A stretch of 64,000 bases of DNA from an uncultured delta proteobacterium (lineage in GTDB: Bacteria > Myxococcota_A > Polyangia > Polyangiales > Houyiibacteriaceae), in contig CAVOVB010000002.1 in the NCBI GenBank assembly GCA_963699755.1, forward strand, positions 224,001 to 288,000, in the 5' to 3' direction. Within the stretch, counting starts at the first letter, position 1. Every line of letters begins with the position of its first letter. The notes below the pieces were generated by a model. The model worked only from the letters and a program-made list of their open reading frames with translations. It was not told where the DNA came from and searched no databases. The translations under genes and the position numbers were made by a program. Shown here piece after piece: positions 4,516 to 63,020 of this stretch.

Positions 4516-6096
<1,581 letters not shown>

Positions 6097-6134
6097 TTTG
6101 GGCGTCGCTCGTAGCGACGTAGGGAGAATGAATC

Positions 6135-7772: not shown

Positions 7773-7780
7773 CGAGCATC

Positions 7781-11398: not shown

Positions 11399-11454
11399 CC
11401 ATTGCCCTAGGGACGCGCGCCGGGCATCATGGCCGGCCGCACAGGTAACAGGAC

Positions 11455-22152: not shown

Positions 22153-22166
22153 TAGAACGTGTTCTA
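22153..22166. promoter_or_regulatory. KstR-type operator 1 (hsaA / amidohydrolase divergon)
   Basis: TAGAACGTGTTCTA fits TnnAACnnGTTnnA and overlaps the -10 of a minus-strand TGGACA-17-TAGAAC promoter. Confidence 0.85.
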
Positions 22167-22244
22167 GCCTACGGGCCAGGACATGTCCAGCGGGCCACTC
22201 TTGATCATAGGGCCCCGCTGAGGACCTCGAAAGGAAGCGATTTC

Positions 22245-23122: not shown

Positions 23123-23710
23123 TCAAATGACGAAGGTGATGCCAAGCGGGAACACGAACTGAACGCCGTAGCGACCTTGGCCCGAGGTCTCGCTGTAGAA
23201 TCGAACCGTCGGAATGCCGAAATCGACCCAGAGCTTCTTGCTCATCTTATAGTTGAACGTGAGCGCGTCGAGCTGCACACCGATCAGGAACCTGTAGGCG
23301 TAGCCGCCTCCCACCCCGATGCCGACACGCCATAGCCAGCTCCAGTCCTTTCGGTGGCGGATGGGCACGAGGGTCCCGTAGGACGCGAAGAACGTCGCTG
23401 TTCCGCGGAGGCGCCAATCGATCCGGTTTGTCGTCGGCGCTGCCTCGAAGCCGAGCAGGTGCCGATGATCATCCCCGAGCAGAAGCCCACCCCGTACTGC
23501 AAAGAGCAGACTCGTCTCGTAGTAGGCCCTGCGCCCCGAGTCGGACTCTCCGTTCACGCCAAAGCCAGCGCCTAGCAGCCCGCCCACGAACCCCAGAGGC
23601 TTGCTTGGCGACGCGGCTTCGTCCGACTGCGCCCACGCCTTGCCTGCGCAACAGAACAAGCTGAGAGCAAGCAACACAGCATGAGCCATCTTCATCCTCC
23701 ACCTGGCCAT
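23123..23710 (-). CDS. Hypothetical exported protein, possible small outer-membrane beta-barrel
   Basis: Signal-peptide-like ...LLALSLFCCAGKAWA/Q; Gly/aromatic amphipathic strands; C-terminal VQFVFPLGITFVI. Confidence 0.55.
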   Translation of the reverse strand: MARWRMKMAHAVLLALSLFCCAGKAWAQSDEAASPSKPLGFVGGLLGAGFGVNGESDSGRRAYYETSLLFAVRGGLLLGDDHRHLLGFEAAPTTNRIDWRLRGTATFFASYGTLVPIRHRKDWSWLWRVGIGVGGGYAYRFLIGVQLDALTFNYKMSKKLWVDFGIPTVRFYSETSGQGRYGVQFVFPLGITFVI

Positions 23711-23744
23711 GCCGGAAAGCATAGTGGAAAAAGGCTGTGCCTTC

Positions 23745-25844
23745 TTACTTCCTCAGGAGGAAGGCTTGGAACGGATAGCGGGTGAAGTCTTCGGGGACGA
23801 GCTGCTTCGTGGCGTCTTCGACCCGGAAGCGCTGGTAGATGGATTCATCGAGCTCGAAGCCTCGGGCGTGAGTCGTGAAGAGCAGCTCTCCCTTCTTGTC
23901 CATGGAGGTCATCGCATTGTCGATTAGGCCCCGATGGTCTTTGTGAATGTTGAAGTCGCCCTTGCTCATCTTGGAGCGTGAGAACGTGGGCGGGTTGATG
24001 AAGATCCAGTCGTAGCTGTTCCGGTCCCTCGCGATCCAACGGGTGGCGTCGTCGCGGATGAATCGATGTTTCGCGGGGTCCAGGCCGTTGGCTTCGAAGT
24101 TCTTCTTGCCCCAGTCCAGATAGGTGTTCGACAGATCGACGCTACTGGTCTGCTTGGCTCCGCCGACTGCTGCCGCCACGCTTACCGAGCAGGTGTACGC
24201 GAAGAGGTTGAGCATCCGCTTACCCTTGCAGTGCTCTTGCGCGTATGCCCGGACCGCCCGATGATCCAAAAATAGGCCGGTGTCGATTCGGTCTTCCACG
24301 TTGACCACGAAGCGAAGGTTGCCTTCGCTCACGATCATGTCGCTTTCCTGCTGGGAGATGCGGGCGTACTGATCGCCCTCCTCGTGCTTGCGACGGACCT
24401 TCACCACCAGGTCGCCGGGATCGATTCCAAGAGCCTCGGGAAGTGTCAGCAAGACGTCCTGAATCCGCTGCTTCGCACGGTCGTCGTCGGCGTCCCGTTC
24501 TTTTTGGAAGATGTGAACCACTGCTTTCGGTCCATAGCGATCGACTGCGACGTGATACTCGGGGATGTCGGCGTCGTAGATCCTATAGCATTCGATGCCG
24601 TTGCGCTTCGCCCATCGCCCCCATTTCTTCTTGTTCTTCTTGATCCGATTGACGAACATCGAGGCCTTCTCGCTCGGTTTTCGCCAGGCCGGAGCCCGGT
24701 CGGGATCGGCGCCGGTCACCCCGCGTATTGGAATCTCGACCAGACGGCATTCGATCGCGCCGTTATACAGAACGTGCCGACGAACTGGTCGAAGGCCGAG
24801 GTGCTTCAGATTGCCTCCGTGGGCGGCAAACACGAAGGCCGTCCAACCGTCGAAGGATCGCTTCAGCGTGTCGCCCAGCGACTGATAGAAGAGAAACAAT
24901 GTGCCCTCGTCCCCTAGTCGATGGCCGTACGGAGGATTGGATACGAGGATGCCGACGTCGGCCGGCTTTTCGATCGTGGAAAGCTCCTGGACTGCGAGCG
25001 ACACATGCTGCTCGACACCAGCGGCTTGCAGGTTCTCTCGAACCAGCGACAGGGCCTTCTCCGATGCGTCGCAGCCGTAGATCCTCGCCGGGCATTCAGC
25101 CCTCCGGGCCGCCAACGCCTCCTCCCGCTCAGCGGCAAAGGCAGCCGCATCGTGCCTGAGCCAGCTCTCGAAGCCGAAGCGCTCGCGTAAGAGACCCGGC
25201 GCACAATTCGTCGCCATCAGTGCGCCCTCGACCAAGAACGTGCCGGAACCACAAGTCGGATCCATCAGGGCCAAACCCCGTCGCGCGGCCTGGGGCCAGT
25301 TCGCAAGATATAGAATCGCGGCCGCCAGGTTTTCCTTGAGTGGTGCCCTGCCACCCGATTGCCGATAGCCGCGACGGTGCAAACCCTCTCCCGAAAAATC
25401 GAGCGACAGCTCGTGCTGAGCTTCCCCGATGTGCAGGTGTAGACGGATCGCAGGATCTCTCTTGTCGATGCTGGGGCGCGTGCCGGCGTGGTCACGAAAG
25501 CCGTCGACGATGGCATCCTTCGCGCGCTGCACCCAGTAGTGGGCGGGGCGCGAGCTCTTGAAGGCCTGAGAGCTTCCGATGGCAAATGTCTTCGAGCCAT
25601 CGAAGTGCTCCCACCAGGCGAGTCCACGGAGCGAGTCGTATAGCGCCGTGTCGTCCTCTGCATCCACCTGGACCAAGGGCAGCAGAACGCGCGAAGCGAC
25701 ACGAGACCAGAGGCAGAGCCGATAGCCTTCCCGAAGGGTGCCCCAGGCGTGCACCGCAGTCGGACGCAAATCGGCAACCTCCACATCCAGGTCGCGCACT
25801 TCCTGGGCCAGGACCTCCTCGCAACCCTTCGGGCAAGGAAGCAC
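23745..25844 (-). CDS. rlmKL: Bifunctional 23S rRNA m2G2445/m7G2069 methyltransferase
   Basis: LHRRGYR, APLKENLAAA, DPTCGSGT, SNPPYG, YRIYDADIPEY, DTGLFLDHR, LNLFAYT, PPTFSRSK. Start uncertain (GTG 25844, or non-canonical ATC 25871). Confidence 0.9.
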   Translation of the reverse strand: MLPCPKGCEEVLAQEVRDLDVEVADLRPTAVHAWGTLREGYRLCLWSRVASRVLLPLVQVDAEDDTALYDSLRGLAWWEHFDGSKTFAIGSSQAFKSSRPAHYWVQRAKDAIVDGFRDHAGTRPSIDKRDPAIRLHLHIGEAQHELSLDFSGEGLHRRGYRQSGGRAPLKENLAAAILYLANWPQAARRGLALMDPTCGSGTFLVEGALMATNCAPGLLRERFGFESWLRHDAAAFAAEREEALAARRAECPARIYGCDASEKALSLVRENLQAAGVEQHVSLAVQELSTIEKPADVGILVSNPPYGHRLGDEGTLFLFYQSLGDTLKRSFDGWTAFVFAAHGGNLKHLGLRPVRRHVLYNGAIECRLVEIPIRGVTGADPDRAPAWRKPSEKASMFVNRIKKNKKKWGRWAKRNGIECYRIYDADIPEYHVAVDRYGPKAVVHIFQKERDADDDRAKQRIQDVLLTLPEALGIDPGDLVVKVRRKHEEGDQYARISQQESDMIVSEGNLRFVVNVEDRIDTGLFLDHRAVRAYAQEHCKGKRMLNLFAYTCSVSVAAAVGGAKQTSSVDLSNTYLDWGKKNFEANGLDPAKHRFIRDDATRWIARDRNSYDWIFINPPTFSRSKMSKGDFNIHKDHRGLIDNAMTSMDKKGELLFTTHARGFELDESIYQRFRVEDATKQLVPEDFTRYPFQAFLLRK

Positions 25845-25881
25845 CCACCGATACCGCTGCGAAGTCTCGATAGGCCCTCGC

Positions 25882-26460
25882 CTACTCCGCCAAGAGGAGC
25901 TCGGCCGTCCTGTCGATGTCCTCGAGGAGCTGGGGCGCTTCGTGCAGGCCACCGGCCCAGCCCACGAAGGATGCAAACCAAACGTTCTGCAGAATTGACG
26001 CGATGGTACGCTCGCGGGCGTCGACGTCTCCACCCCATTCTCCTTGTTGAGACGCAGCCTGGCCGCGAATGGCGGCCATGACCATTGCAGTAATGAGGGC
26101 GTGGAAGCTGGCGACGCGCTCGGTGATGTTCGGATCACCGGAGGCCAGGGAGCGAACGAGGGCCTTCGCCAGATTTGGGCGGCGAAGAAGCCCCCTGGTG
26201 AGCGCCGAGAAAACGAAATGCACTCGCTCTCTAGGGCCGTCGCCCGGGACCGGCTGCTTGCCGATCTTGGCCACCAGCTTTTCGCTCTCTTGCTCGAGCG
26301 CGGCGATTAGGATTTCTTCTTTGCTGGAAAAGCGCTTGTACACCGTGCCGAGGGCAACTTGCGCGCTAGCCGCGACGTCGCGCAGCCGAACCGCCTGGTA
26401 GCCATCGCGCTCTGCAAGTGCGACTGCGGTTTCGACGATGCGCTTGGCTCGATCGTCCAT
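25882..26460 (-). CDS. kstR: TetR-family regulator, KstR-like
   Basis: HTH GYQAVRLRDVAASAQVALGTVYKRFSSK closely parallels mycobacterial KstR as recalled (GYEAVQMRAVADRADVAVGTLYRYFPSK); C-terminal IASILQNVW also resembles KstR. KstR boxes lie nearby. Confidence 0.8.
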   Translation of the reverse strand: MDDRAKRIVETAVALAERDGYQAVRLRDVAASAQVALGTVYKRFSSKEEILIAALEQESEKLVAKIGKQPVPGDGPRERVHFVFSALTRGLLRRPNLAKALVRSLASGDPNITERVASFHALITAMVMAAIRGQAASQQGEWGGDVDARERTIASILQNVWFASFVGWAGGLHEAPQLLEDIDRTAELLLAE

Positions 26461-32227: not shown

Positions 32228-32563
32228 TCAGCCCTGGGGAAAGAATTTCTGCATCTTCTGAGCGAGAGCGATATTGCCCTTCACCTTGAGCTTGCGCGTG
32301 AGGAACGCCTTGCGCCCGTCGAGGTCGCCATTGGCCATCTCGACGAACTTCGCAGCGTCCATCATCACGTTGAGAGTCGGCTTCTCGACACCACCGGTCT
32401 TGACGCCCTTGAACTCCCCGTCGGTGATTGTGATGGTCCACTCGCCGCCGCCGTCACCTGAAAGCGTATATTGAATCTGGGCGTTGACACCTTTGGCCTG
32501 CTCCGGCTCGAATCGATCGGCAAGGGTGTCGAAATACTCTGCTGTGTTGGCTACTTTGGCCAT
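32228..32563 (-). CDS. SCP2 sterol-binding domain protein
   Basis: IQYTLSGDGGGEWTI...AFLTRKLKVKGNIALAQK SCP2 signature; RBS GGAGG. Confidence 0.88.
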   Translation of the reverse strand: MAKVANTAEYFDTLADRFEPEQAKGVNAQIQYTLSGDGGGEWTITITDGEFKGVKTGGVEKPTLNVMMDAAKFVEMANGDLDGRKAFLTRKLKVKGNIALAQKMQKFFPQG

Positions 32564-32605
32564 GTTCACCTCCCGGTTCCGGGTCGAAAAAGGGTCCACT
32601 AGAAG

Positions 32606-32619
32606 TGAAACGTGTTCTA
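32606..32619. promoter_or_regulatory. KstR-type operator 2 (SCP2-DUF35-ltp4-ltp3-fadD19-kshA-kstR operon)
   Basis: TGAAACGTGTTCTA; overlaps the -10 of minus-strand TTGACG (32642-32637)-17-TAGAAC (32619-32614). Confidence 0.85.
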
Positions 32620-32693
32620 TTTTGCCGAAGGCGCCACGTCAAGCCGCCTCGTTCCCCGGGCCGAAGAAAAGCCTCGAAATGCTGCCGCGCCGG

Positions 32694-33062
32694 CTACTGC
32701 TGATTCGCAGGAGGCACGATCGAGCCGACGACGTGGAGGCCGGCGACGCACTCCTCGCCCACGCGGCGAGCCCAGATGACGCGTGCCCGCTTGAAGAGCA
32801 CCCGCCCAGTGTGCGTCGTGATGCGCAAGTCACAGAGCGCGCCGGTCGAGAGCCAGCGGTCGAGGGCGACTTGGATCCCCATCGCGCTCACATCCAAAGC
32901 CGTCGCCTGGGTTTGGATCGGCGAAAGGATCTGGATCTTCGCGTCGGAGGCCCAGCGGGTATCATGGCGCCGTTCCTCAGGCGGCGCCGCGCGGCGAACC
33001 TCGGAGTGGCTCCGGCCCGGAGGCGGTGGATTCGAACCTTGTCTCGGAACCTTTGAGCTCAT
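32694..33062 (-). CDS. Stand-alone PilZ domain protein
   Basis: RxxxR (ERRHDTR) and DxSxxG (DVSAMG) c-di-GMP motifs; C-terminal ARVIW strand. Confidence 0.75.
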   Translation of the reverse strand: MSSKVPRQGSNPPPPGRSHSEVRRAAPPEERRHDTRWASDAKIQILSPIQTQATALDVSAMGIQVALDRWLSTGALCDLRITTHTGRVLFKRARVIWARRVGEECVAGLHVVGSIVPPANQQ

Positions 33063-40380: not shown

Positions 40381-40394
40381 TGAAACGCGTTTCA
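40381..40394. promoter_or_regulatory. KstR-type operator 3 (echA20-ipdABC-fadE31-fadE32-fadA6 operon)
   Basis: Perfect palindrome TGAAACGCGTTTCA, 28 bp upstream of echA20 and just downstream of a minus-strand TTGACC (40407-40402). Confidence 0.85.
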
Positions 40395-40423: not shown

Positions 40424-40903
40424 TCAGGCCACGAGGGTGTCGAGGAACCCCTCGGTCGCCGTCCCGATGGGCCGCGCTATTGGCGCCAGCTCGGCACGGA
40501 CGGCGTCCGCAGCGCTCGGGACGTCGGGGGTCGTGCCGGTGCGAATCAGCGGCGTTCGAAAGCGGTACACGACCTGGAGCACAGCCCGATCGATCGCTTC
40601 GGGCACTACGACCACCACGGAGAAATCGTCTCGTTTCAGCTTGTCACGGCGAGCGTCCAGCCAGCGGGCGAAGGTCTTGGGATGGCGCGCTGCAATCACG
40701 CCGGTGCCACGTTCGTGTCGAACCAGCCCGACGAACGGCAGCGCGTGATCGAGTTGGAAATCGGCGATGCTCAGCATCAGCTCGATTTCGTGGTCCTCGA
40801 TGAGTCGAGGCCGTTTCATGTCGCAAAGTAGGTGAGGCATCCTCACGAAAGCGAGAAATCCCTCGAAGCGCGGGAACGATGAATACATTACTTCGCTCGT
40901 CAA
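40424..40903 (-). CDS. Hypothetical protein, SpoIIAA/SEC14-like fold suspected
   Basis: Pattern similarity to the 43344-43757 protein (FARWLDARRDKLK vs IIDWIDRDRPALK; PSAADAVRAEL vs PSAEAWLREQL). Start uncertain. Confidence 0.5.
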   Translation of the reverse strand: MTSEVMYSSFPRFEGFLAFVRMPHLLCDMKRPRLIEDHEIELMLSIADFQLDHALPFVGLVRHERGTGVIAARHPKTFARWLDARRDKLKRDDFSVVVVVPEAIDRAVLQVVYRFRTPLIRTGTTPDVPSAADAVRAELAPIARPIGTATEGFLDTLVA

Positions 40904-40983
40904 TCCGAGTATGGTGATGAAACGAACAGTGACCGAGCGGTGCTGTCTTGCCCATCTCTTGGCTTGGCGATATCACGGTCGCC

Positions 40984-42549
40984 GTGTTCGAGACGATTCC
41001 TCAGATGGTCGCCAAACAGGCCGAAAGCCTTGGCGATCGGGCCGCCATCGTCGACGGCGAGAAGACGCTCAGCTTCACCGAGCTCGCCGAGCATGTGGAT
41101 GAGGCCGCCCGGGCTCTGATCGCTCTGAGGATTCAGAAGGGCGACCGGGTTGCTATCTGGGCGCCGAACATCTGGGAGTGGATCGTCTGTGCGCTGGCGA
41201 TCCACAGCGCCGGTGCCGTGATGGTCCCGATCAACACCCGATACAAGGGAATCGAGGCCTCCTACCTGCTCGAGAAGAGCGGCGCGAAGGCGCTGTTCAC
41301 GGTGACCGGATTTCTGGATGTCGACTACGTGGCCCTTCTTCGCAACAGCGCGGCAGACCTCCCCGAGCTCGAGCAGATCATCGTGCTCCGCGGAGAAGCG
41401 CCGCAAGGAACGCTCGGCTACCAGGACTTCCTCGGGCTTGCAGCGGGCGTTTCCCCAAGCGCCGCTCGAGAGCGCGCGGCCGCCGTCGGCCCCGATGACC
41501 TCGCCGACATCCTCTTCACCTCGGGCACCACCGGCAAGCCCAAGGGCGCGATGTGCACGCATATGCAGAACCTACGCGCCTTCGATCAATGGAGCTCCAT
41601 CGTCGGGCTTCGCGAAGGCGATCGGTATCTGGTCGTACTGCCGTTCTTCCACAGCTTCGGCTACAAGGCGGGCTGGTTTTCCGCGCTCATGCGGGGGGCA
41701 ACGGTGTTCCCGGAGCCAGTCTTCGACGTGAACGTCGTCCTTCGGCGCATCGAGGAAGACGCGATCACCATGCTTCCAGGGCCGCCCGCCCTGTATCAAT
41801 CGATTCTGCTCGATCCGAACCGCGCGCGGTTCGACATTTCGAGCTTGCGCCTCGCGGTTACCGGCGCGGCAGCAATCCCGGTCGAGTTGATTCACCGAAT
41901 GAAGGATGAGCTCGGGTTTGAAACGGTGATTACTGCCTATGGGCTCACCGAAAGCTGCGGCGTCGTCACCATGTGTCGGCTCGACGACGACGCCGAAACC
42001 ATCGCCACGACGAGCGGCCGAGCGATCGCTGACGTCGAGGTTCGAATCATCGACAGCGAAGGCAATCCACTCCCCGCAAACCAGCCCGGTGAAATCGTCG
42101 TCCGCGGATACAACGTCATGAAGGGTTACCTCGACGCAGAGGAAGAGACGAAGATGGCCATCGACGAAGATGGTTGGCTCCACACGGGCGACATCGGAAC
42201 CATGGACGAGCGCGGCTACATCAAGATTACGGACCGCCTCAAAGACATGTTCATCGTAGGCGGCTTCAACGCTTATCCTGCGGAAATCGAGAACACACTC
42301 TTGCAGATGCCCGGCGTCGGCGAAGTCGCGGTGATCGGCGTCCCTGATGAGCGGCTCGGAGAGGTCGGGATGGCCTTTGTCGTTCCTGCGCCTGGACAGT
42401 CCCTCACGCCCGAGAGGGTGATTTCGTGGAGCCGGGCAAACATGGCGAATTTCAAAGTGCCTAGACGCGTCGAGATCCTCGAGGCTCTACCTCGCAATGC
42501 GACCGGCAAGGTCGTGAAGTTCGAGCTTCGGGAGCGAGCCAGTGGCTGA
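40984..42549 (+). CDS. fadD3: HIP-CoA ligase FadD3-like acyl-CoA synthetase
   Basis: ILFTSGTTGKPKG, DRYLVVLPFFHSFGYKAG, SLRLAVTGAA, TAYGLTE, DMFIVGGFNAYPAEIE. Confidence 0.82.
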   Translation: MFETIPQMVAKQAESLGDRAAIVDGEKTLSFTELAEHVDEAARALIALRIQKGDRVAIWAPNIWEWIVCALAIHSAGAVMVPINTRYKGIEASYLLEKSGAKALFTVTGFLDVDYVALLRNSAADLPELEQIIVLRGEAPQGTLGYQDFLGLAAGVSPSAARERAAAVGPDDLADILFTSGTTGKPKGAMCTHMQNLRAFDQWSSIVGLREGDRYLVVLPFFHSFGYKAGWFSALMRGATVFPEPVFDVNVVLRRIEEDAITMLPGPPALYQSILLDPNRARFDISSLRLAVTGAAAIPVELIHRMKDELGFETVITAYGLTESCGVVTMCRLDDDAETIATTSGRAIADVEVRIIDSEGNPLPANQPGEIVVRGYNVMKGYLDAEEETKMAIDEDGWLHTGDIGTMDERGYIKITDRLKDMFIVGGFNAYPAEIENTLLQMPGVGEVAVIGVPDERLGEVGMAFVVPAPGQSLTPERVISWSRANMANFKVPRRVEILEALPRNATGKVVKFELRERASG

Positions 42550-47863: not shown

Positions 47864-47877
47864 TGAAACATGTTTCA
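47864..47877. promoter_or_regulatory. KstR-type operator 4 (oxidoreductase-SDR-SDR-ACAD-fadE30-ipdF operon)
   Basis: Perfect palindrome TGAAACATGTTTCA, 12 bp upstream of GTG 47890. Flanks AAG...GTC are identical to operator 3. Confidence 0.85.
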
Positions 47878-53699: not shown

Positions 53700-54677
53700 C
53701 TAGACGCGGCTCTTCCGGACCTGCCAGGCGTCGGAATACCTCAACATGTACCAGCGGATGAGCGGCGCAAACATCCGCACCAGGGGCCGCGTGAAGCGTG
53801 ATGCTTTCCGCATCTGGCCAATGAACTCCTCGAAGCTGGTTCGCTGGTAGGCCAAGAGCGATTGACTCTCCTTGGTGTCGAGCCAATCGCAGTAGTAGAT
53901 GCCGCTGCCATAGGCTTCGACCGGAAAACGCCCTACGCCCGTCGCGTCGAACATCGCACCATAGAGCTCACGAAACGTCAGTCGGCAGCTCTCGCCGCCG
54001 CCGATCATCAAGGTCTTGCCGACCGCCTCCGGGTTTTCGATGGCGCGCACCTGAGCAAGCGCAACGTCCTCGGGATGCACCCATTCGAGACGCGTCTCCG
54101 GGTTGATGCTGAAGAGCAAGCGAAAGACGTCCGGCGAGAGGTCGCCCGCCGCTGCTTTGACCCCTACCGACACGCCGATTCGAAAGATCACGTACGGCAG
54201 GCCCGATTCCCGAAGGAGCCGCTCGCACTCGGCCTTGTTCGAGGTATAGAAGTCGGTCCCGATCGCGGGGTCCTTGCCGGTCAGCGGTGGTCCGCCCGGC
54301 GCACGGGGCCCGCAGACCGACAGGGACGACGCGAAGACGATGACCGGGGGACGTTCCCTACGTTTCATCGCTTCCAGGAGGTTCTGGGTACCCCCCACGT
54401 TGACCGCGTACGCCAGGTCCGGATGGCTCTCCGAGACCGGCGCCAGCACGCCCGCGTTGTGGATGATCGCATCGGCCTCCAGGACTGCCGGCCCGATGTC
54501 CCCGGCCGATCGGATGTCGCCCCAGACGACTCGAATCCTCTCCGCGAACCGCCTTGCTGCCTTCTCGTTTCGGCGATTCGGCACGTCAAAGGCGGTCACC
54601 GAATATCCCTCTTTCAAGAGACGCTCGATGGCCTCTTGTCCAAGCCGACCAAACGCCCCCGTCACCAGCACGCGCAT
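53700..54677 (-). CDS. NAD-dependent epimerase/dehydratase (extended SDR; 3beta-HSD-like by context)
   Basis: VLVTGAFGRLG, VNVGGTQNL, FASSLSV, YTSNK. Confidence 0.8.
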   Translation of the reverse strand: MRVLVTGAFGRLGQEAIERLLKEGYSVTAFDVPNRRNEKAARRFAERIRVVWGDIRSAGDIGPAVLEADAIIHNAGVLAPVSESHPDLAYAVNVGGTQNLLEAMKRRERPPVIVFASSLSVCGPRAPGGPPLTGKDPAIGTDFYTSNKAECERLLRESGLPYVIFRIGVSVGVKAAAGDLSPDVFRLLFSINPETRLEWVHPEDVALAQVRAIENPEAVGKTLMIGGGESCRLTFRELYGAMFDATGVGRFPVEAYGSGIYYCDWLDTKESQSLLAYQRTSFEEFIGQMRKASRFTRPLVRMFAPLIRWYMLRYSDAWQVRKSRV

Positions 54678-54713
54678 CCGCGCAGGCTGACCTGCAGCCG
54701 TGCGCGCTTCAAA

Positions 54714-54742
54714 TTGAAACACGTTCTTCTTCCTGATAGGGT
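54714..54742 (+). promoter_or_regulatory. Putative promoter of the F420 operon overlapped by KstR-type operator 5
   Basis: TTGAAA (54714-54719)-17-TAGGGT (54737-54742). TGAAACACGTTCTT (54715-54728) matches the KstR box except for the final base. Confidence 0.68.
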
Positions 54743-54781
54743 CGCGCTCCCCGAAAGAGCGCGGTACCAAAGGAATTCTAG

Positions 54782-55825
54782 ATGAGGCTCGGCCTAACAC
54801 TTGGATACGCAGGTCCCCAGTTGAACACGACCGTTCAGGACCTGGTGAACATGGAAAAGATCGGCGAGGTCGAGCGCCTGGGCTACGACTCGATTTGGAC
54901 GGCGGAGTCCTGGGGCAACGACGCGGTCACGCCGCTCGCCTGGGTGGGCCCGCAGACTTCGACCATCAAGTTGGGCACGGCGATCATGCAACTGCCTGGT
55001 CGCTCGCCAGCGAACGCGGCGATGACGGCCATGACCATGGACATGCTTTCGAACGGACGCTTCATCATGGGGCTCGGCACTTCGGGTCCACAGGTCGTCG
55101 AAGGCTGGCACGGCGTCCCCTTCAACAAGTCCCTCACCTGGCTGCGCGAATACGTCACCATCGTGAAGAAGATTTTCGCGCGCGAGGCTCCGCTCGAGTT
55201 CGACGGTGTGCACTATCAAATTCCTTATCGTGGCGAAGGTTCTTCGGGCCAGGGCAAACCGCTCAGGAGCATGATCCGAAGTCGAGCTGATATTCCGGTC
55301 TTCACCGGCTCGATGGCGCCCAAGTCTCAGGCGATGTCTGCCGAGATCGCCGATGGCTGCTTGCTCACTTGCATGCACCCCGAGCGTTCGGAAGTCCTGA
55401 TGAAGAACTTCAACGAGGGCTTCGCGAAGGCTGGCAATGGCAAAGGTGTCCAGAGCTTCGACATCGCTCCAACTGTGGTGGTCATCATCGGCGACACGCA
55501 GGATGCAATGACGCCTTGCAAGATGCAGCTCGCGCTCTACATCGGTGGCATGGGCTCGAAGAAAAAGAACTTCTACAAGGACTATCTGAGCCTGGTCGGA
55601 TTCGAAGAAGCCTGCGAGAAGGTCCAAACGCTCTTCCTCGATGGCAAGCGCAATGAAGCGATTGCTGCCGTGCCCGACGAAATGGTCGATGCCCTCTATC
55701 TAATCGGCTCCAAGGACCGCATTCGCGACCGATTTCAGCGTTGGAAGGAGTCGCCGGTCGGAACGATGATGATCGGCTCGCAGGACATGGACACGCTCCG
55801 CTTCATGGCCGAGCTCAACTCGTGA
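54782..55825 (+). CDS. LLM-class F420-dependent oxidoreductase, Rv3520c-like
   Basis: WTAESWGNDAVTPLAW, LGLGTSGPQVVEGWHG, ALYIGGMG...NF. Confidence 0.85.
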   Translation: MRLGLTLGYAGPQLNTTVQDLVNMEKIGEVERLGYDSIWTAESWGNDAVTPLAWVGPQTSTIKLGTAIMQLPGRSPANAAMTAMTMDMLSNGRFIMGLGTSGPQVVEGWHGVPFNKSLTWLREYVTIVKKIFAREAPLEFDGVHYQIPYRGEGSSGQGKPLRSMIRSRADIPVFTGSMAPKSQAMSAEIADGCLLTCMHPERSEVLMKNFNEGFAKAGNGKGVQSFDIAPTVVVIIGDTQDAMTPCKMQLALYIGGMGSKKKNFYKDYLSLVGFEEACEKVQTLFLDGKRNEAIAAVPDEMVDALYLIGSKDRIRDRFQRWKESPVGTMMIGSQDMDTLRFMAELNS

Positions 55826-55832
55826 GGCAGCG

Positions 55833-56489
55833 ATGAAGATCGGAATCGTAGGGGGCACTGGGCGCGAGGGTCGTGGCTTGGCGGTTCGCTGGGCGAAGGC
55901 TGGGCATGACGTGTTCATTGGTTCTCGCCAGGCCGAGAAGGGAGCGGCAAAGGCGGCCGAGCTCTCGGCGGAGTTTGGCGTCAGCATTGAGGGCGCCGAC
56001 AATATCACGGCGTGTGAGCATGCTGAGCTGATCATCGTGACGGTTCCGTACGGCGCCCACGAGGCTACCTTCGATTCGATCAAGGACTCGGTCGGCGACA
56101 AAGTGATCGTCGACATCACGGTACCCCTTCAGCCGCCCAAGGTTCGCTCCGTGAACCTGCCCAAGGGGCAATCGGCAGCCCTAGAAGCACGCGCGTTGCT
56201 CAACGAGGGTGCGCGCCTGGTGGCTGCGCTCCACCACATCAGCTCGGAGCACCTCAGCGACCCAGCTCACAGCTTCGATTGTGACGTCCTGGTCTGTGGC
56301 GACGACAAGGACGCGCGCGCTGCCGTCATTTCGCTCGTCGCCGATTTAGGCCTTCGCGGCATCGATGCCGGCGTCTTGAAGAATGCGATTGCGCTCGAGT
56401 CGCTCACGCCGGTTCTCTTGTACATCAATCGCCGCTACAGGAGCGTCGGCTCCGGCATTCGCATCACGGGCATTCCGGAGACGGAATGA
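55833..56489 (+). CDS. npdG: NADPH-dependent F420 reductase (F420:NADP oxidoreductase)
   Basis: MKIGIVGGTGREGRGLA, IGSRQ, DVLVCGDD, ESLTPVLLYINRRY...GIRITG. Confidence 0.9.
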   Translation: MKIGIVGGTGREGRGLAVRWAKAGHDVFIGSRQAEKGAAKAAELSAEFGVSIEGADNITACEHAELIIVTVPYGAHEATFDSIKDSVGDKVIVDITVPLQPPKVRSVNLPKGQSAALEARALLNEGARLVAALHHISSEHLSDPAHSFDCDVLVCGDDKDARAAVISLVADLGLRGIDAGVLKNAIALESLTPVLLYINRRYRSVGSGIRITGIPETE

Positions 56490-57301
56490 GCCATGACGGG
56501 CCAACTTCGGACGACCTTCGCGTCGGCTCGGAGCTTCTGGTTCGCTCGATCGCCGGCATCCCGACGGTCGAGGCCGGCGACGACCTCTACGAGCTGATCG
56601 TGTCCTGCCTAGGCCGGGCTCAGCTGGATCTGGTCGACGGAGACGTGCTCGTGGTCGCGAGCAAGATCGTCTCGCGCGCAGAGGGCTGCTTCGTCGATTT
56701 GGGAAGCATCGTCCCGAGCGACACAGCCAATCAGCTCGCGGTAGAGCTCGAGAAGGACGCACGCCTGGTAGAGCTGATTCTGCGCGAGAGCGTGGGGATT
56801 TCACGCAAGACGAGCGGCGCACTGATCGTCCGGCACCGTCTTGGCTTCATTTCCGCCAACGCCGGAATCGACGCGAGCAATGCGGCTCCGTCCAACGTAC
56901 CCCAAGACAGCGGTCCCTGGGTGCTCACTTTGCCTCATGATCCAGATGCAAGCGCAGCCTCGCTTCGCACCAAGCTCTGCGCACGCTACTCGGCGGAGGT
57001 CGCGGTGCTCGTCACCGATTCCTGGGGACGCCCGTTTCGCCGTGGCACCGTAGGCTTTGCCGTTGGTGTCGCCGGTCTGCCGGCGATCTGGGATCGCCGC
57101 GGTGCCATCGATCGGCACGGACGGGTGCTCGAGGCGACCGAGTCTGCAGTTGCCGATTCAGTCGCCGCAGCAGCGGACCTCGTCGCCGGACAAGCCAACG
57201 AGGGCCGACCGGTTACCCTGGTGCGTGGGCTTCGTTTCAAAGCGTCACGCGATTCGGCAGCGGTCTTGCTTCGCGATCCAGAGAACGATCTCTACGCATG
57301 A
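56486..57301 (+). CDS. cofE: Coenzyme F420-0:L-glutamate ligase (single domain)
   Basis: [50 protein letters not shown]. Confidence 0.92.
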
Positions 57302-58233
57302 CTCCGGGGTCAGAGAACGGCTTCTCGGTCGTTGCACTCGCAGGAGGCGTGGGTGGCGCGAGGCTCATCGACGGACTCAGCTCCGTGCTCCCTCGGGGCT
57401 CGCTCACTGCCGTGGTGAATACCGGTGATGACTTCCGGCATTGGGGGCTCCAGATCAGCCCCGACATCGATACGGTGATGTACACCCTCGCGGGCCTGTC
57501 ACCGGAGGACCGCGGCTGGGGCATCGAGGGCGATAGCTTCGAGGTTCTAGAAGAGGCCAAGCGCCGTGGCCTCGACAATTGGTTCCAGCTGGGTGACCGC
57601 GATCTGCTCACCCACCTGACCAGAACCAGTGCGCTGTCCCGCGGCGATTCCCTGACGCAGGCCACCGCCGAGCTCTGCAAGTCGCTTGGCGTCGAGAGGC
57701 CCATCCTGCCGATGAGCGACGATCCCTGTCCAACGAGCATCTTGACCAGAAGCGGCGAAGAGCTCGCATTCCAACAGTGGCTGGTCAAGGCTCGAGCAGC
57801 GCCCGCGGTACGCGAGATTCGGCACGGTGGCAGCGGCCGAGCCACACGGTCGGTCCTCAATGCGCTCAGCGCTGCGGATCTAGTCGTGATTTGTCCATCG
57901 AATCCGTACGTTTCAATCGACCCCATCCTCGGTTTGGCTGGCGTTTTCGAAGTGATTCAGCGCGCGACGACTGTCGCTGTGAGCCCGATTTTGGGGGCCA
58001 AAGCAGTGAAGGGTCCGCTCGCCTCCATGATTTGGGAGATCGACGGACGCGTCGCATCGGCCGAAGCGGTCGCCATCCACTATGAGGGTCTGCTGGATGG
58101 ATATGCACTGCACCACGGGGACGCCTTCAGCGCCAAGTATCCAATCCTCGAAACGAACATCCTGATTCAAATGAAGGAAGATCGGATACGCTTCGCCAGC
58201 GAGCTGCTCGAGTTCGCTCGGAGCCTGCCATGA
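57298..58233 (+). CDS. cofD: 2-phospho-L-lactate/PEP transferase (CofD/FbiA)
   Basis: LAGGVGGA, VNTGDD, ISPDIDTVMYTLAG, WFQLGDRD, PSNPYVSIDPIL, KGP. Confidence 0.93.
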   Translation: MTPGSENGFSVVALAGGVGGARLIDGLSSVLPRGSLTAVVNTGDDFRHWGLQISPDIDTVMYTLAGLSPEDRGWGIEGDSFEVLEEAKRRGLDNWFQLGDRDLLTHLTRTSALSRGDSLTQATAELCKSLGVERPILPMSDDPCPTSILTRSGEELAFQQWLVKARAAPAVREIRHGGSGRATRSVLNALSAADLVVICPSNPYVSIDPILGLAGVFEVIQRATTVAVSPILGAKAVKGPLASMIWEIDGRVASAEAVAIHYEGLLDGYALHHGDAFSAKYPILETNILIQMKEDRIRFASELLEFARSLP

Positions 58234-58826
58234 GCCGCTGGGCGTTGATTCCAATCAAGGGTTTCGATCGCGGGAAGTCGAGGCTCTCCGAAGTTTTGGC
58301 GCCAAGCGAGCGCGCGCAATTGGCGCGCTCGATGTTCGAACACGTCGTCCAGGTGCTTCGTGAGTCGCCGCACATCGACGCGATTGCAGCCGTGAGCGAT
58401 TCGCCCGAGGCCCGTGAGCACGCCGACGAGATGGGCGTGCTGGCACTCGCGGACGCCGATGGCAGCCGAGGCCTCGCCGACGTCGTCGATCGCGCGCTAC
58501 TGGAGCTCGCGCTGCACGGCGCAACTAGCGTGCTGATCTGCATGAGCGACCTGCCAGACTTGACCGTGCAGGACATCGCAAGCGTGGCACGCGAGCTCGA
58601 GGAGAGCGAGGTTGTGCTCGTGCCCGATCTCGCACAGCGGGGCACCAACGTCATCGCGGTGAGGCCAGCGACCGCGCTTCCGAGCTGCCTCGGACATGAT
58701 GACAGCCTCCAACGTCATCACGTTCGCGCCCGCGGTCTCGGCCTCAGCGTAAGCATCCAGCTCAGCAGCGGCATCGGTTTTGACGTCGACCGCCCGGTCG
58801 ACCTCGATCGATTGCTGGAGCGTTAG
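58230..58826 (+). CDS. cofC: Phospho-substrate guanylyltransferase (CofC/FbiD)
   Basis: ALIPIKG...KSRLS, SDLP, GTN, FDVDRPVDL. Confidence 0.9.
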   Translation: MSRWALIPIKGFDRGKSRLSEVLAPSERAQLARSMFEHVVQVLRESPHIDAIAAVSDSPEAREHADEMGVLALADADGSRGLADVVDRALLELALHGATSVLICMSDLPDLTVQDIASVARELEESEVVLVPDLAQRGTNVIAVRPATALPSCLGHDDSLQRHHVRARGLGLSVSIQLSSGIGFDVDRPVDLDRLLER

Positions 58827-59632
58827 TGCCCCGCCGAAAGGCGGTCCATGAGCAGGCCGAGGAAGCGGGTGGCGAGTGGACGCGGCAAAAGCCTAATCGT
58901 GAGAACCATCAGCTTGTTGAGGAGGCCGGGAACGACCGTCACCCGCCCTCCAAGGGCCCGCAAGCTCGTCGAGACCACCGAAGCGGGGCTTGCGAAGATC
59001 AAGCGTGCGAGCGGGCCGAATCTGCGAGGGTCGAGACCCGCAACTCGCTGGAACTCGCTGTTCGTCCCCCCCGGACAGAGCGCCTGCACGTCGACACCGT
59101 GGGGCTTGAGCTCGGCGGCGAGACCCTCCGCGAAGAGAAGATCGTAGGACTTGGTAGCGTTGTAGTTGGCCATCCCGCGTGCTCCGGAGAATCCGTTGAC
59201 CGAAGAGACGAAGATCACTGCACCTTTGCCCCGTTCGCGCATACCTTGCGCGATCTCGTGCGTGAGAAGCATCGGCGCGCGGCAATTCAAGTTGAGCATC
59301 GCCTCTTGAACACTGGGGTCCATGTCGAGGAAGGGTCCGCTCGAGCCGAAGCCCGCGCAGTTGACCAACAAACCGATCTCGATCCCGTCAAGCGCCGGCC
59401 GCAATACCTCGACGATGTCACGCGAGGCGAGGTCCGCAGGAGCTACGCGAGCTTCGACCTGGCACATGTCTTCGATGTTCGACGCGAGCGCTTCGAGACG
59501 GTTGCGACGCCGCGCCACCAGGACGACGTTGACCCCACGCTCGGCAATGCGTCTCGCAAACTCTGCACCAATTCCCGCGGAAGCGCCGGTGATGACCGCC
59601 CAGGGTCCGTAGCGCTCGGTAAACTGGCTCAT
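58823..59632 (-). CDS. SDR family oxidoreductase
   Basis: YGPWAVITGASAGIG, LVARR, YNATK, LCPGGT. Confidence 0.9.
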   Translation of the reverse strand: MSQFTERYGPWAVITGASAGIGAEFARRIAERGVNVVLVARRRNRLEALASNIEDMCQVEARVAPADLASRDIVEVLRPALDGIEIGLLVNCAGFGSSGPFLDMDPSVQEAMLNLNCRAPMLLTHEIAQGMRERGKGAVIFVSSVNGFSGARGMANYNATKSYDLLFAEGLAAELKPHGVDVQALCPGGTNSEFQRVAGLDPRRFGPLARLIFASPASVVSTSLRALGGRVTVVPGLLNKLMVLTIRLLPRPLATRFLGLLMDRLSAGH

Positions 59633-59672
59633 GGCCCATGAGCCTACCACGCGGCTCGCTAGCACACAGCCA

Positions 59673-60950
59673 TCAGCTCACGACGCGCAAGCTGCGAGGC
59701 TCGTAGCGGAACCGCGAGTCTTGGGTCAGCTCTTCATAGGAGCCGAAAACCTCATCGGGATTCTGAATCGCGTCGAGCGGCTCCGTGGGGTCCTGATCGG
59801 ATGTGCCCCCGAACTCGCGAAGCACCCCGTAGCCGGTGTCGCGCTGCACGGGCACCCTCCCCGAATCTCGGATGACCCGGCGCAAGGTCGCGGGCGTCAT
59901 TAGCTGTCCGTGACGAGCACCCGCCGCGGTCGAGATGCTCTCGTTCATGAGCGTCCCACCGAGGTCATTGACGCCGCAGCTGAGCAACAACTGGGAGGTG
60001 CGAAGACCTTCCTTGACCCAAGATGCCTGGAGGTTCGGGATGTCCCAGCCGAGCATGAGGCGGGCCGTCGCGTAAAGGCGGAAGACCTCATCACCGGTCG
60101 GCCCTGGCCGAACGCCCGGTACCTCGCTGGCCGCGAAGAGCGGCGCGTCCTCGTGGACGAAAGACAGTGGGACGAACTCGGTGAACCCACCGGTCTCCCG
60201 TTGGACTCTACGTAGAAGATCCATGTGCCGCATCCGATCCTCGACCGATTCGACGTGCCCAAACATCATGGTGCAAGTCGTTCGAATGCCGAGCCGGTGG
60301 GCGGAGGTGACGACGTCCAGCCATTCCCCGGTCGTGATCCGGGTGGGTGAAATGGTTTTGCGCAGACGGTCGTCGAGAATTTCGGCCGAGGTGCCAGGAA
60401 GCGTGCCGAGACCCGCCTCCTTGAGCTCGGCCAGGTAGTCGCTGTAGGAGACCCGCTTGAGCGAAGCGCCAAACTTCACCTCTTCCGGCGAGAAAGCGTG
60501 GATGTGGATCTCAGGCGCCGCTTCCTTCACGACGCGACACAGCTCGCCATAGCTGTTGCCGGTCAAATTCGGCGAGAGACCAGCTTGTAGGCAGACTTCG
60601 GTGGCACCCATCTCCCAGGCCTGGCGGACTCGCCGCGCGACCTCTTCGTGGGGAAGGAAGTAGCCATGCTCCGAACGCACCGTGCGGGCAAATGCACAGA
60701 ACTTGCAGTTCTTGATGCAGACGTTGGTGAAGTTGATGTTTCGATTGACGACGTAGCTGACCCGCTCACCCACCTGCCGTCGGCGGAGCTCGTCGGCAAC
60801 CATGCACAGGGCCTGGAGGTCGCGCCCTCGCGCCTCGTTCAAGACCATTCCGTCTTCGACGCTGAGCTCATCACCGCCGAGGCTCTGCTCGAGGATCGTG
60901 CGAATAGGGGACGAAACCTCCTGGAGACAGGTTTCGAGAGCGGTCGTCAT
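59673..60950 (-). CDS. cofH: FO synthase subunit CofH (radical SAM)
   Basis: VVNRNINFTNVCIKNCKFC, HIHAFSPEE, LPGTSAEIL, GGFTEFVPL, NDLGGTLMNESI. Confidence 0.92.
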   Translation of the reverse strand: MTTALETCLQEVSSPIRTILEQSLGGDELSVEDGMVLNEARGRDLQALCMVADELRRRQVGERVSYVVNRNINFTNVCIKNCKFCAFARTVRSEHGYFLPHEEVARRVRQAWEMGATEVCLQAGLSPNLTGNSYGELCRVVKEAAPEIHIHAFSPEEVKFGASLKRVSYSDYLAELKEAGLGTLPGTSAEILDDRLRKTISPTRITTGEWLDVVTSAHRLGIRTTCTMMFGHVESVEDRMRHMDLLRRVQRETGGFTEFVPLSFVHEDAPLFAASEVPGVRPGPTGDEVFRLYATARLMLGWDIPNLQASWVKEGLRTSQLLLSCGVNDLGGTLMNESISTAAGARHGQLMTPATLRRVIRDSGRVPVQRDTGYGVLREFGGTSDQDPTEPLDAIQNPDEVFGSYEELTQDSRFRYEPRSLRVVS

Positions 60951-62089
60951 GGCGTGGCTAGCTCCATTTGAACCTTGCGGATATGAGGGCGCAAAGATGC
61001 GTCCACGAAACCCCGCGCATCGAGGTGACCGGGATATGCTGGCAGTCTCCGTTCGAGTCGAAATCCCTCGGCTTCGCAGGCTTCGCCAAGGCGTTCGAGA
61101 TACGGCCAGGGATGTTGAGGGTTGATGTAGTCTGGGGTCACAGGCGAAATGCCACCGAAGTCGTTGATGCCTGCATGGATCAAGGCGGCCGTCGAAGCTG
61201 GATTGAGATTAGGTGGCGCCTGAACGCTGATGTCGTCGTCGAGGATCAGCCGGGTCAGGGCGATCGTGGCGGCGAGCTCGTCGGAGCTCGGCTCGCGCGA
61301 CAAACCCATCGGAGTATCGGGATGCGCGCGAAAGTTCTGGACGATCACTTCGCCGATATGACCGTGCTCGCGATGCAAGCGTCGAATCGCAACAATCGTG
61401 TCGATTCGCTCCTCGATCGTCTCACCGATTCCGATGAGAAGGCCCGAGGTGAACGGAATTTGGAGCTCGCCCGCTTCGCGAGTCATTTGAAGGCGCTTGG
61501 CCGGTCGCTTGTCGGGCGCGCGATGGTGCGGCATGCCCCTTTCGCATAGTCGCTCACTCACGTTCTCGAGCATCAAGCCGAGGCTCACGTTCACTGGCCT
61601 GAGCGCGACCATATCCTCGCGAGAAAGAATGCCGGCATTGGTGTGCGGTAGCAGCCCCGCTCGTAGCGCTTCTTCGGCCGCCCAGCGAAGATAGTCGACC
61701 GTTCGTTCGTGCCCCCAAGAACGCAGTAGGGCCCGGTATTCCCGAAAGCCGGTTTCAGGCGTGTCACCCAAGCAAAACAGCGCCTCGATGCAGCCCTGCT
61801 GTCGTGCTCGATGGAGCCAATCGTGAATCTCGCCGGGGCTCATCGTCCATTCGCCGGGATCGCCCGGCGAACGACGAAACGAGCAGTAGTCGCAGTGATT
61901 CCGGCAGAGATTGGTGATCGGAAGAAACACCTTGGGAGAGTACGTGAGCCTCTTCCCCCAGGCACGATCGCGACGAGCACCAGCAGCCTCGCAAAGGGAG
62001 GCGCCGTCGAGCTCGCTCAGTCGGTAGGCGTCTTGCTCGCTGACCGGACCGAAGCTTGCGCTGTGCAAAGTTCTCGACATCGGGGTCAT
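60947..62089 (-). CDS. cofG: FO synthase subunit CofG (radical SAM)
   Basis: TYSPKVFLPITNLCRNHCDYC, LLPHTNAG, PFTSGLLIGIGE, QAPPNL, GGISPVTPDYINP. Confidence 0.92.
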   Translation of the reverse strand: MTPMSRTLHSASFGPVSEQDAYRLSELDGASLCEAAGARRDRAWGKRLTYSPKVFLPITNLCRNHCDYCSFRRSPGDPGEWTMSPGEIHDWLHRARQQGCIEALFCLGDTPETGFREYRALLRSWGHERTVDYLRWAAEEALRAGLLPHTNAGILSREDMVALRPVNVSLGLMLENVSERLCERGMPHHRAPDKRPAKRLQMTREAGELQIPFTSGLLIGIGETIEERIDTIVAIRRLHREHGHIGEVIVQNFRAHPDTPMGLSREPSSDELAATIALTRLILDDDISVQAPPNLNPASTAALIHAGINDFGGISPVTPDYINPQHPWPYLERLGEACEAEGFRLERRLPAYPGHLDARGFVDASLRPHIRKVQMELATP

Positions 62090-62961
62090 TGCATCTTGGC
62101 GATGACGGTGTCCGCAAACCGGTTCAGGCCGTCGAGGCGTCCCTGCAAATCGCCGCCTAGCATGGGAGTCCCATACATGAGCCAGGGCACGGTGATGATA
62201 TCGGTCACGCCTGCGTCTTCGAGACGCTTGTACCCGTCGGCATCCCAGACGTCAGTAACGACCGCCTGGTATTCCATCGGCAGATGGTCACGACCGTACT
62301 CCTTGCGAAAGGTTTCGATCTGGCCGATGAGGGCGAGCAGCTTCTTCGAAGTAAGCATCGCCGAAGACCAGCCGTCTCCGTATTTGGCTGCGCGTCGAAG
62401 CCCCGGCTTGCTGTGGCCACCTATGTAAATGGGAATGGGCTTGCTCGGGGCCGGGCTCATCTGGATCTTACCGAAGTCGTAGTGCTCGCCGTGGTATTCG
62501 ACCATGCCGCCTCCCCAAATGAGGCGGAGTATTTCGAGACACTCGTCCATGCGCTTGCCGCGCGTGTCGAAGTCCGTGCCACACCACTTGAACTCCTCGG
62601 GCAGCCAGCCGAGCCCACAGCCGAAGCCAAAGCGATTATTGGAAAGCGCCGCCAGGGAAGCGACCTGTTTGGCGACCAAGACTGGATGGCGCACGGGCAG
62701 CTTCACGACGCTCGTGTAGAGGAACAGCGATTGCGTCGCAGCAGCCATGGCGGCTGCGCCCACAATCGGCTCAATCCACGGAGTCTCGCCGTCCCACATG
62801 CGACTGCCGTCTTGGGTGTACGGGTACGGCTTACTGACTTCCTCTGAGAAGAAGATCGAGTCGGGCAAGACGATGGCATGATAGCCGCGTTTCTCCGCCT
62901 CCTTCGCCACCGGGATGTAGTGCTCAGGCGGCGCCATGGCGATTGAGACGCTGAATTTCAT
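62086..62961 (-). CDS. LLM-class F420-dependent oxidoreductase (Rv2161c-family-like)
   Basis: YPYTQDG, RHPVLVAKQVASL, GLGWLPEEF, PIYIGGHS...RRAAKYGDGW; ATGA-coupled to cofG. Confidence 0.85.
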   Translation of the reverse strand: MKFSVSIAMAPPEHYIPVAKEAEKRGYHAIVLPDSIFFSEEVSKPYPYTQDGSRMWDGETPWIEPIVGAAAMAAATQSLFLYTSVVKLPVRHPVLVAKQVASLAALSNNRFGFGCGLGWLPEEFKWCGTDFDTRGKRMDECLEILRLIWGGGMVEYHGEHYDFGKIQMSPAPSKPIPIYIGGHSKPGLRRAAKYGDGWSSAMLTSKKLLALIGQIETFRKEYGRDHLPMEYQAVVTDVWDADGYKRLEDAGVTDIITVPWLMYGTPMLGGDLQGRLDGLNRFADTVIAKMQ

Positions 62962-63020
62962 CGGGCGGACCTTAGCATAGGGGAGCCCCAAGCAAAGCCT
63001 CTATCAGGGACGAAGGCCGC

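Follow-up and report, generated by a model that had tools for sequence, protein, structure and literature searches.

What is a cassette of genes for making and recharging coenzyme F420 doing at the edge of a steroid catabolic cluster in an uncultured member of Myxococcota? The locus lies in a stretch of 64,000 nucleotides (the window; G000:C2:224001-288000) of contig CAVOVB010000002.1 in assembly GCA_963699755.1, designated G000 here, which comprises 5.35 Mb in 11 contigs. To our knowledge, F420 has no assigned physiological role in Myxococcota. In mycobacteria, the luciferase-like (LLM) oxidoreductase Rv3520c is an orphan of the cholesterol regulon, and the F420 biosynthesis genes are located elsewhere in the genome. 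The answer that we favour, and hold to be probable from comparison of sequences, is that the core F420 biosynthesis and recharging cassette at the edge of this KstR-type steroid cluster is a member of the steroid regulon and supplies reduced F420 to LLM1, an Rv3520c-type enzyme of the steroid pathway. Comparison lends good support to the predicted physical, regulatory and phyletic link of the F420 cassette with an Rv3520c-type LLM and with KstR-type steroid catabolism. F420 clusters and KstR regulons are each already known; what appears to be new is the joining of a non-actinobacterial F420 cassette to a KstR-type steroid regulon.

The closest public relatives of the stretch were uncultured Myxococcota metagenome-assembled genomes (MAGs; "Myxococcales bacterium SG8_38", "Polyangiales bacterium" and "Sandaracinaceae bacterium"), and the metagenome runs sharing at least half of its sampled words were labelled marine sediment or sediment.

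The F420 island and the adjoining steroid cluster

The island consists of nine tightly packed genes at positions 54782-62991, five on the plus strand and four converging on them from the minus strand. Gene families were called against the curated NCBIfam cut-offs (bit score and cut-off are given in this order below), with Pfam in agreement, and all eight named families of the island passed. The plus-strand genes are LLM1, an F420-dependent luciferase-like oxidoreductase of the Rv3520c subfamily (54782-55825; TIGR03559 F420_Rv3520c, 368 and 335, residues 2-331), npdG for the NADPH-dependent F420 reductase Fno (55833-56489; TIGR01915, 203 and 150; PF03807, 8.8e-18), cofE for a single-domain F420-0:glutamate ligase of 271 amino acids (56486-57301; TIGR01916, 244 and 181), cofD for 2-phospho-L-lactate transferase (57298-58233; TIGR01819, 263 and 257), and cofC for the guanylyltransferase (58230-58826; TIGR03552, 127 and 105). 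On the minus strand follow LLM2, an F420-dependent LLM of the Rv2161c family (62086-62991, with a likely start at the ATG at 62961; TIGR03619, 204 and 167), the FO synthase subunit genes cofG (60947-62089; TIGR03550, 415 and 213) and cofH (59673-60950; TIGR03551, 467 and 374), and finally a short-chain dehydrogenase/reductase (SDR) gene (58823-59665; Pfam adh_short, 1e-41). Both radical SAM subunits carry the CxxxCxxC motif, as CRNHCDYC at residue 62 of CofG and CIKNCKFC at residue 78 of CofH.

LLM1 and npdG are separated by 7 nucleotides (GGCAGCG), and ATGA overlaps join npdG to cofE, cofE to cofD and cofD to cofC, as well as LLM2 to cofG and cofG to cofH on the other strand; the stops of cofC and SDR overlap convergently by 4 bp. 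An earlier interpretation of this DNA, made from the letters alone (the sequence-only reading), had described LLM1-npdG-cofE-cofD-cofC as tightly coupled, and the gap, the overlaps and the family scores bear this out. It had also proposed that the convergent LLM-cofG-cofH-SDR unit completes the pathway. With a complete pathway taken as the five core enzymes, this part stood: cofC, cofD, cofE, cofG and cofH are all present, each above its equivalog cut-off, and cofD is single-copy in the genome. The part given to the SDR found no support. In 5 of the 18 close-relative loci that cover the site (L004, L007, L010, L022 and L023), tblastn gave no match to this gene between those of cofC and cofH. 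A genome-wide search for the FbiB C-terminal domain (TIGR03553) gave hits of 23 bits only; the linker precursor may therefore be 2-phospholactate, 3-phosphoglycerate, or phosphoenolpyruvate with an additional reductase.

The split cofG and cofH and the single-domain cofE mark the build of the cassette as non-actinobacterial, and it therefore did not simply come along with an actinobacterial pathway. The GC content of the island (0.60-0.64) is not different from that of the window, and composition thus gives no sign of recent transfer. The nearest solved structures to LLM1 were F420-dependent Mer enzymes, at only about 70 bits, and no solved or characterised member of TIGR03559 was seen in the structure and literature look-ups.

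The steroid catabolic cluster extends from about 15 kb to 54.7 kb of the window and contains HsaA-like, hsaEFG-like, KshA-like, ChsH2/Ltp2-like, ipdAB-like and EchA20-like (echA20) genes, FadA, FadE and FadD genes, and a KstR-like TetR repressor. The island adjoins its right edge, as the sequence-only reading had stated, and beyond it lie housekeeping genes: to its right, a beta-lactamase-fold gene is followed by MetH, a GGDEF gene, menaquinone (men) genes and ilvD.

The repressor gene (25882-26460, minus strand), the last of its operon, was located solely through a genome-wide TetR_N search (PF00440 match at G000:C2:250299-250439). The best solved structures for its product were those of M. 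tuberculosis KstR (5cw8; E = 1.2e-22, residues 3-190, full length). The gene has no operator box of its own and closes a minus-strand run of SCP2-like, chsH2, ltp, ltp2, fadD, kshA and kstR genes that begins at the box at 32606; autoregulation would therefore act via that operon. A gene for an RlmL/THUMP-type RNA methyltransferase (23745-25900) in the middle of the cluster is probably an unrelated housekeeping gene.

KstR-type operators and the LLM1 promoter

The mycobacterial KstR pattern TnnAACnnGTTnnA had four perfect sites in the window, compared with 0.24 expected, and 48 matches genome-wide, 24 of them with T[AGT][AG]AAC half-sites. These strict sites adjoin KshA-, HsaA- and KstD-like genes, and the genome is predicted to carry about 25 operators of the mycobacterial KstR type. 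A position weight matrix (PWM) was trained on the 24 strict sites, the site at 54715 being left out. The perfect boxes of the window are located upstream of the HsaA-like gene (TAGAACGTGTTCTA, 22153-22166, 26.5 bits), of the SCP2-chsH2-ltp-fadD-kshA-kstR run (TGAAACGTGTTCTA, 32606-32619, 30.4 bits), of the echA20-ipdAB-ipdC-fadE-fadA operon (TGAAACGCGTTTCA, 40381-40394, 25.1 bits) and of the enone-reductase-like gene at 47890 (TGAAACATGTTTCA, 47864-47877, 29.6 bits).

Upstream of LLM1, the box TGAAACACGTTCTT (site 5, 54715-54728) matches the pattern at 13 of 14 positions and scored 20.8 bits in the PWM, which placed it at rank 24 in 5.35 Mb; only two non-training sites genome-wide exceeded 17 bits, and background began from 15 bits. 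It covers the -35 and most of the spacer of the predicted promoter of the LLM1 operon (54714-54742, plus strand), which combines a -35 element TTGAAA (54714-54719), a spacer of 17 nucleotides and an extended -10 element TGnTAGGGT (54734-54742). In the alignment of the 104-bp intergenic region, the arrangement TTGAnn, 16-17 nucleotides, TGnTAnnnn was kept in all 23 sequences, the window and 22 relatives. A sigma-70 consensus scan of 54500-55000 returned no promoter, so the call is one of conservation alone. The claim of a near-perfect KstR box over the putative -35 was thus upheld by the match, the rank and the conserved promoter, with the reservation that the left half of the box is the -35 itself and only the right half (GTTCTT) therefore counts as independent evidence.

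Site 5 scored at least 18 bits in 9 of the 22 genus relatives, was weak in 1 and fell below 13 bits in 12, and perfect boxes occupied its place in L010 and L018, both among the most divergent of the genus. The box at 47864 was kept in 13 of 13 covering relatives, and against this the 12 losses among 22 indicate that the constraint on site 5 is weak within the genus. The operator at the LLM1 promoter looks real and appears to be evolutionarily labile.

Divergent from LLM1 lies a gene of the NAD-dependent epimerase/3-beta-hydroxysteroid dehydrogenase (3-beta-HSD) family (53700-54677, minus strand; Pfam Epimerase 2.4e-22, 3Beta_HSD 4.1e-18), whose start is the ATG at 54677, followed by VLVTGAFGRLG. 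The DNA directly upstream of this start codon, GCAGGCTGACC (54678-54700), is nearly invariant in the relatives and may serve as a translation start, a leaderless promoter or a binding site.

Recurrence of the association in related genomes

Close relatives were represented by 25 loci with an LLM1 of at least 85% identity. The epimerase and the steroid-side genes were present in all 21 that extend leftwards, and npdG followed LLM1 in 24 of the 25. The wider sample comprised 201 genomes of the order, with an LLM1 orthologue defined by at least 60% identity. The HsaA model NF045629 served as steroid marker; its scores were bimodal (at least 278 or at most 250 bits), and the threshold for HsaA-strong genomes was set post hoc, once this distribution was known. 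The KshA_C family (PF19298) was dropped as a marker for being too broad, with matches in 94 of the 201 genomes along a score continuum. Greedy longest-ORF (open reading frame) calls in L026, L028, L030 and L032 gave overlapping spurious frames and were not used; flanking genes were read by tblastn and by eye.

The gene cofD was present in 58 of the 201 genomes, 36 of the 39 HsaA-strong ones compared to 22 of the 162 others. Within families, the respective counts were 27/29 and 0/10 in f1, 1/2 and 0/7 in f10, 2/2 and 0/29 in f16, 3/3 and 6/36 in f17, and 2/2 and 10/13 in f3. The three HsaA-strong genomes lacking cofD are assemblies of 520, 720 and 1310 contigs; in G071, the second HsaA-strong genome of f10, which gave no cofD match, cofE lies at a contig end. 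LLM1 orthologues occurred in 38 of the 39 HsaA-strong genomes and in 3 of the 162 others.

Among 20 diverse cassette loci, a compact npdG/cofEDC/cofGH unit was found in all. Steroid-type genes neighboured it in G199, G041, G072 and G200, an LLM1 orthologue stood beside it in G041, G072, G200, G017, G073 and G146, and 13 loci had neither. Where LLM1 is separate from the cassette, it remains with steroid genes; in G105 and G115 it comes immediately after the FadA6-like thiolase of an ipdAB-ipdC-fadE-fadA run.

A second order was reached via three MAGs labelled Proteobacteria or Enterobacterales, and here cofD was present in 5 of 17 HsaA-positive genomes and 2 of 134 others. In G202, KshA- and HsaA-like genes flank the island on a single contig. 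The linkage of cof and steroid genes thus recurs after rearrangement in f10, f16, f17 and the second order. A comparison of synteny had been suggested with the sequence-only reading, and its outcome was positive in close relatives, other families and a second order.

KstR-type boxes recurred at the F420 genes as well. In other lineages of the order, boxes of 21-29 bits occupied the space between the divergent genes cofE and npdG or a place shortly before npdG. The divergent arrangement was seen in G041 and G071 (f10) and in G072 and G145 (f16), none with an epimerase gene present, and in G041 the npdG ATG starts on the last base of the box. In G199, from another genus of f1, a box precedes npdG-cofEDC. 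In G194 (f17), a 24-bit box stands 64 bp before a second copy of npdG, beside LLM1 in the steroid cluster (L075, G194:C1:150000-169999), and a different contig carries the complete cassette, which includes an npdG of its own. In the second order, G201 and G204 have a box 27-28 bp before LLM1-npdG-cofED, and the proteobacterial-labelled G202 (L028, G202:C349) has tandem double boxes at 8410-8447 and 14705-14741, one before a CaiB/Mcr-like gene and then LLM1-npdG-cofEDC, the other before a P450-like gene and then cofG-cofH, with KshA- and HsaA-like genes on both sides on the same contig. Box-bearing F420 promoters thus occur in four families and also in the second order, with its proteobacterial labels. 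No box of at least 17 bits was found at 16 cassette loci without steroid neighbours. The wiring of box and cassette is recurrent, not universal.

Role of the cassette and competing explanations

If the cassette belongs to the steroid regulon, the KstR-like repressor would, with steroid absent, occupy 54715-54728 and block RNA polymerase at the LLM1 promoter until a steroid-derived ligand releases it. LLM1-npdG-cofE-cofD-cofC would then be transcribed as one message, CofC, CofD and CofE would convert FO from the separately transcribed CofGH to F420, Fno would load F420 with hydride from NADPH, and LLM1 might use F420H2 to reduce a steroid-derived intermediate. The place of LLM1 after the FadA6-like thiolase in G105 and G115 suggests a CoA thioester from late ring degradation as its probable substrate.

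Genome-wide, the curated cut-offs were passed by 11 predicted F420 enzymes, of which six are LLMs, three FDOR-A and two FDOR-B. Of the nine located outside the island, one, an FDOR-A (TIGR00026; G000:C2:506854-507327), is part of a second locus (G000:C2:505079-507327, L072:5079-7327) in which a top-scoring KstR-type box of 30.7 bits is followed by a KstD-like FAD gene and then by the FDOR-A gene, whose start is overlapped by 4 bp by the KstD-like stop. The best NCBIfam matches of the KstD-like gene were 3-ketosteroid-delta-1-dehydrogenase models, below their cut-offs. The stretch from KstD to FDOR-A was matched in all 18 genus relatives searched, in 12 of them in one piece well into or through FDOR-A. 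F420 thus appears to be a general cofactor in this organism, with at least two predicted users, LLM1 and FDOR-A, inside the steroid regulon. Because the other F420 enzymes are scattered over the genome, the box probably raises the supply rather than switching it on from zero.

A number of observations weigh against the role proposed. The substrate of LLM1 and the direction of its reaction are guesses. The best NCBIfam family of the repressor is by far NF033703 KstR, at 124 bits against a cut-off of 280. The single mismatch of TGAAACACGTTCTT to TnnAACnnGTTnnA falls at position 14, a conserved outer position, and the loose pattern with one mismatch occurs at chance level (11 found, 8.1 expected). 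From 54729 over the next 13 kb of the contig no box exceeded 8 bits, so this genome shows no sign of the same control over the LLM2-cofG-cofH unit. In G200, G017, G073, G146 and G077 no box reached 17 bits despite LLM1 lying beside the cassette, and in three f7 genomes, where LLM1 also adjoins the cassette, there is neither HsaA nor a box. In the second order, 12 of the 17 HsaA-positive genomes lack cofD; with most steroid degraders there devoid of F420 genes, the module accompanies some steroid pathways as an accessory and is not required by them in general. Finally, the genomes compared share kinship, so that the counts are not independent samples. The earlier idea that F420 is made on demand was accordingly narrowed: it could apply at most to LLM1-npdG-cofEDC, given the boxless cofGH, the box below 13 bits in 12 of 22 relatives and the nine F420 enzymes elsewhere. 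Of the proposal that both LLM proteins act on steroid intermediates, the half concerning LLM2 found no support: no evidence ties LLM2 to steroids.

Some facts of this kind would suit a functionless adjacency, with a general-purpose cassette beside the steroid cluster by chance, a box that is decaying or fortuitous, and F420 serving the scattered FDOR and LLM enzymes. Of the nine F420 enzymes outside the island, eight have no box within 10 kb or are encoded on a boxless contig, the island abuts the steroid cluster at its right edge next to housekeeping genes and is not embedded in it, and 12 of the 22 genus relatives have no box of at least 13 bits at the LLM1 promoter. Compact cassettes with no steroid genes nearby are frequent in the order (the 13 of 20 sampled loci), and 22 of the 162 HsaA-weak genomes hold the cassette, as counted by cofD. 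We nevertheless regard chance adjacency as unlikely, since the linkage survives rearrangement in f10, f16, f17 and the second order, high-scoring boxes sit exactly in the cofE/npdG promoters of several lineages, cofD contrasts sharply within families (2/2 and 0/29 in f16, 27/29 and 0/10 in f1), and LLM1 tracks HsaA (38/39 and 3/162).

The box might instead govern only the divergent epimerase/3-beta-HSD-like gene, a plain member of the steroid regulon, with the LLM1-cof operon being constitutive. The box is 38 bp from the epimerase start codon in the 104-bp divergent region, and mycobacteria frequently have KstR sites in regions of this divergent kind, as Table 3 of PMC1995591 shows. That it overlaps the -35 and spacer of a conserved rightward promoter, that G041, G071, G072 and G145 have the cofE/npdG box without an epimerase, and that a box precedes LLM1 by 27-28 bp in G201 and G204 make exclusive control of the epimerase very unlikely. 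We give similarly little credence to the idea of a neighbouring lipid or xenobiotic pathway, for instance the breakdown of fatty or branched acyl-CoAs, which would share a KstR-type regulator and draw on LLM1 and the cassette without any steroid-specific step. Its attraction is that the genes beside LLM1 are generic acyl-CoA enzymes (acyl-CoA dehydrogenases, SDRs, a thiolase and an enone-reductase-like alcohol dehydrogenase) and that mycobacterial KstR was first described, in the account given in PMC1995591, as a regulator of lipid degradation. It fits poorly with boxes that flank KshA-, HsaA- and KstD-like genes, with the position of LLM1 after the steroid ring C/D genes ipdAB-ipdC-fadE-fadA in G105 and G115, and with the tracking of HsaA by LLM1.

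Supply of reduced F420 to LLM1 within the steroid regulon remains the reading that we favour, and known systems resemble it in part. For the M. tuberculosis Rv3520c/Rv3521 intergenic region, the listing in Kendall 2007 (PMC1995591) marks the KstR motif as positive for experimental evidence, and the passages on Rv3520c in PMC6429209 and PMC12855090 list it merely as an F420-dependent oxidoreductase of the cholesterol region. LLM1 is like Rv3520c in its subfamily (TIGR03559 is named after Rv3520c), its divergent promoter with a KstR motif, its steroid cluster and the same operator consensus; it is unlike Rv3520c in heading an operon whose further genes encode Fno, CofE, CofD and CofC. A 2021 review (PMC8498797) describes compact F420 clusters with Fno and LLM enzymes from Proteobacteria and Chloroflexi; in it, Fno is regarded as the principal reducer of F420 in bacteria having such clusters, the F420-reducing direction is called dominant and the role of F420 in Proteobacteria is described as unresolved; the words steroid, cholesterol and Myxococc do not occur in that review. 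The present cassette shares with those clusters the split cofG and cofH, the single-domain cofE and the attached Fno and luciferase-like enzymes. Those clusters have no assigned pathway, whereas position, operator and co-occurrence all connect the cassette here with a steroid regulon.

In the anaerobic degrader Sterolibacterium denitrificans, a figure legend of PMC6678751 names SEDNCHOL_10763-10765 as guanylyltransferase, 2-phospho-L-lactate transferase and F420:glutamate ligase, adjoining ACS3, a steroid isomerase, an enoyl-CoA hydratase, an SDR and acyl-CoA dehydrogenases; in the text of that paper as available, F420 occurs in this legend only, and among the papers searched just one more, on an unrelated matter, mentions both the organism and F420. 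The likeness, known here from the legend alone, is that of cofC-, cofD- and cofE-annotated genes beside steroid genes, and the difference is that this oxygenase-independent organism belongs to another class. A full-text search, with most subscription journals and supplements outside its coverage, found no literature linking F420 biosynthesis to a steroid regulon.

A broader proposal is offered tentatively, as possible rather than probable. Aerobic sterol catabolism of the actinobacterial (KstR/HsaA) type may include an F420-dependent reaction of an Rv3520c-family LLM, which would be hidden in Actinobacteria, where F420 is always present, and exposed in the Myxococcota and some Proteobacteria with this pathway, where a cassette of non-actinobacterial build would have joined the steroid cluster under KstR operators, the cofactor travelling and being regulated with the pathway. 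If the link is true, the role of F420 outside Actinobacteria and archaea, the role of the Rv3520c family in steroid breakdown, and the way in which a spreading catabolic pathway drags its cofactor supply along become testable, and LLM1 with the cassette and a KstR box would be a genomic marker of a sterol-degrading guild in marine and estuarine sediments. A raised F420 supply during sterol use would point to an undescribed F420-dependent steroid step.

RNA evidence was sought in an estuary metatranscriptome (X14) of short contigs, in which a 153-nucleotide piece free of differences spans the cofD/cofC junction; no conclusion was drawn, since neither transcription nor its strand or induction can be read from contigs of an RNA library. 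Six small open reading frames of the window (22164-22949, 23123-23722, 32484-33056, 40424-40903, 40900-41562 and 41572-42183) gave no match in Pfam and NCBIfam scans. Upstream of the steroid cluster, positions 2671-12531 hold an unremarkable block of genes for branched-chain amino acids (ilvBN, ilvC, two leuA/cimA-like genes, leuCD and leuB), followed by a malic enzyme gene. KshA_C-type Rieske oxygenases have eight paralogues in the genome and five to nine in each genus relative, and several of the paralogues adjoin paired KstR-type boxes (C1:1833862/1833877 and C7:168843/168858).

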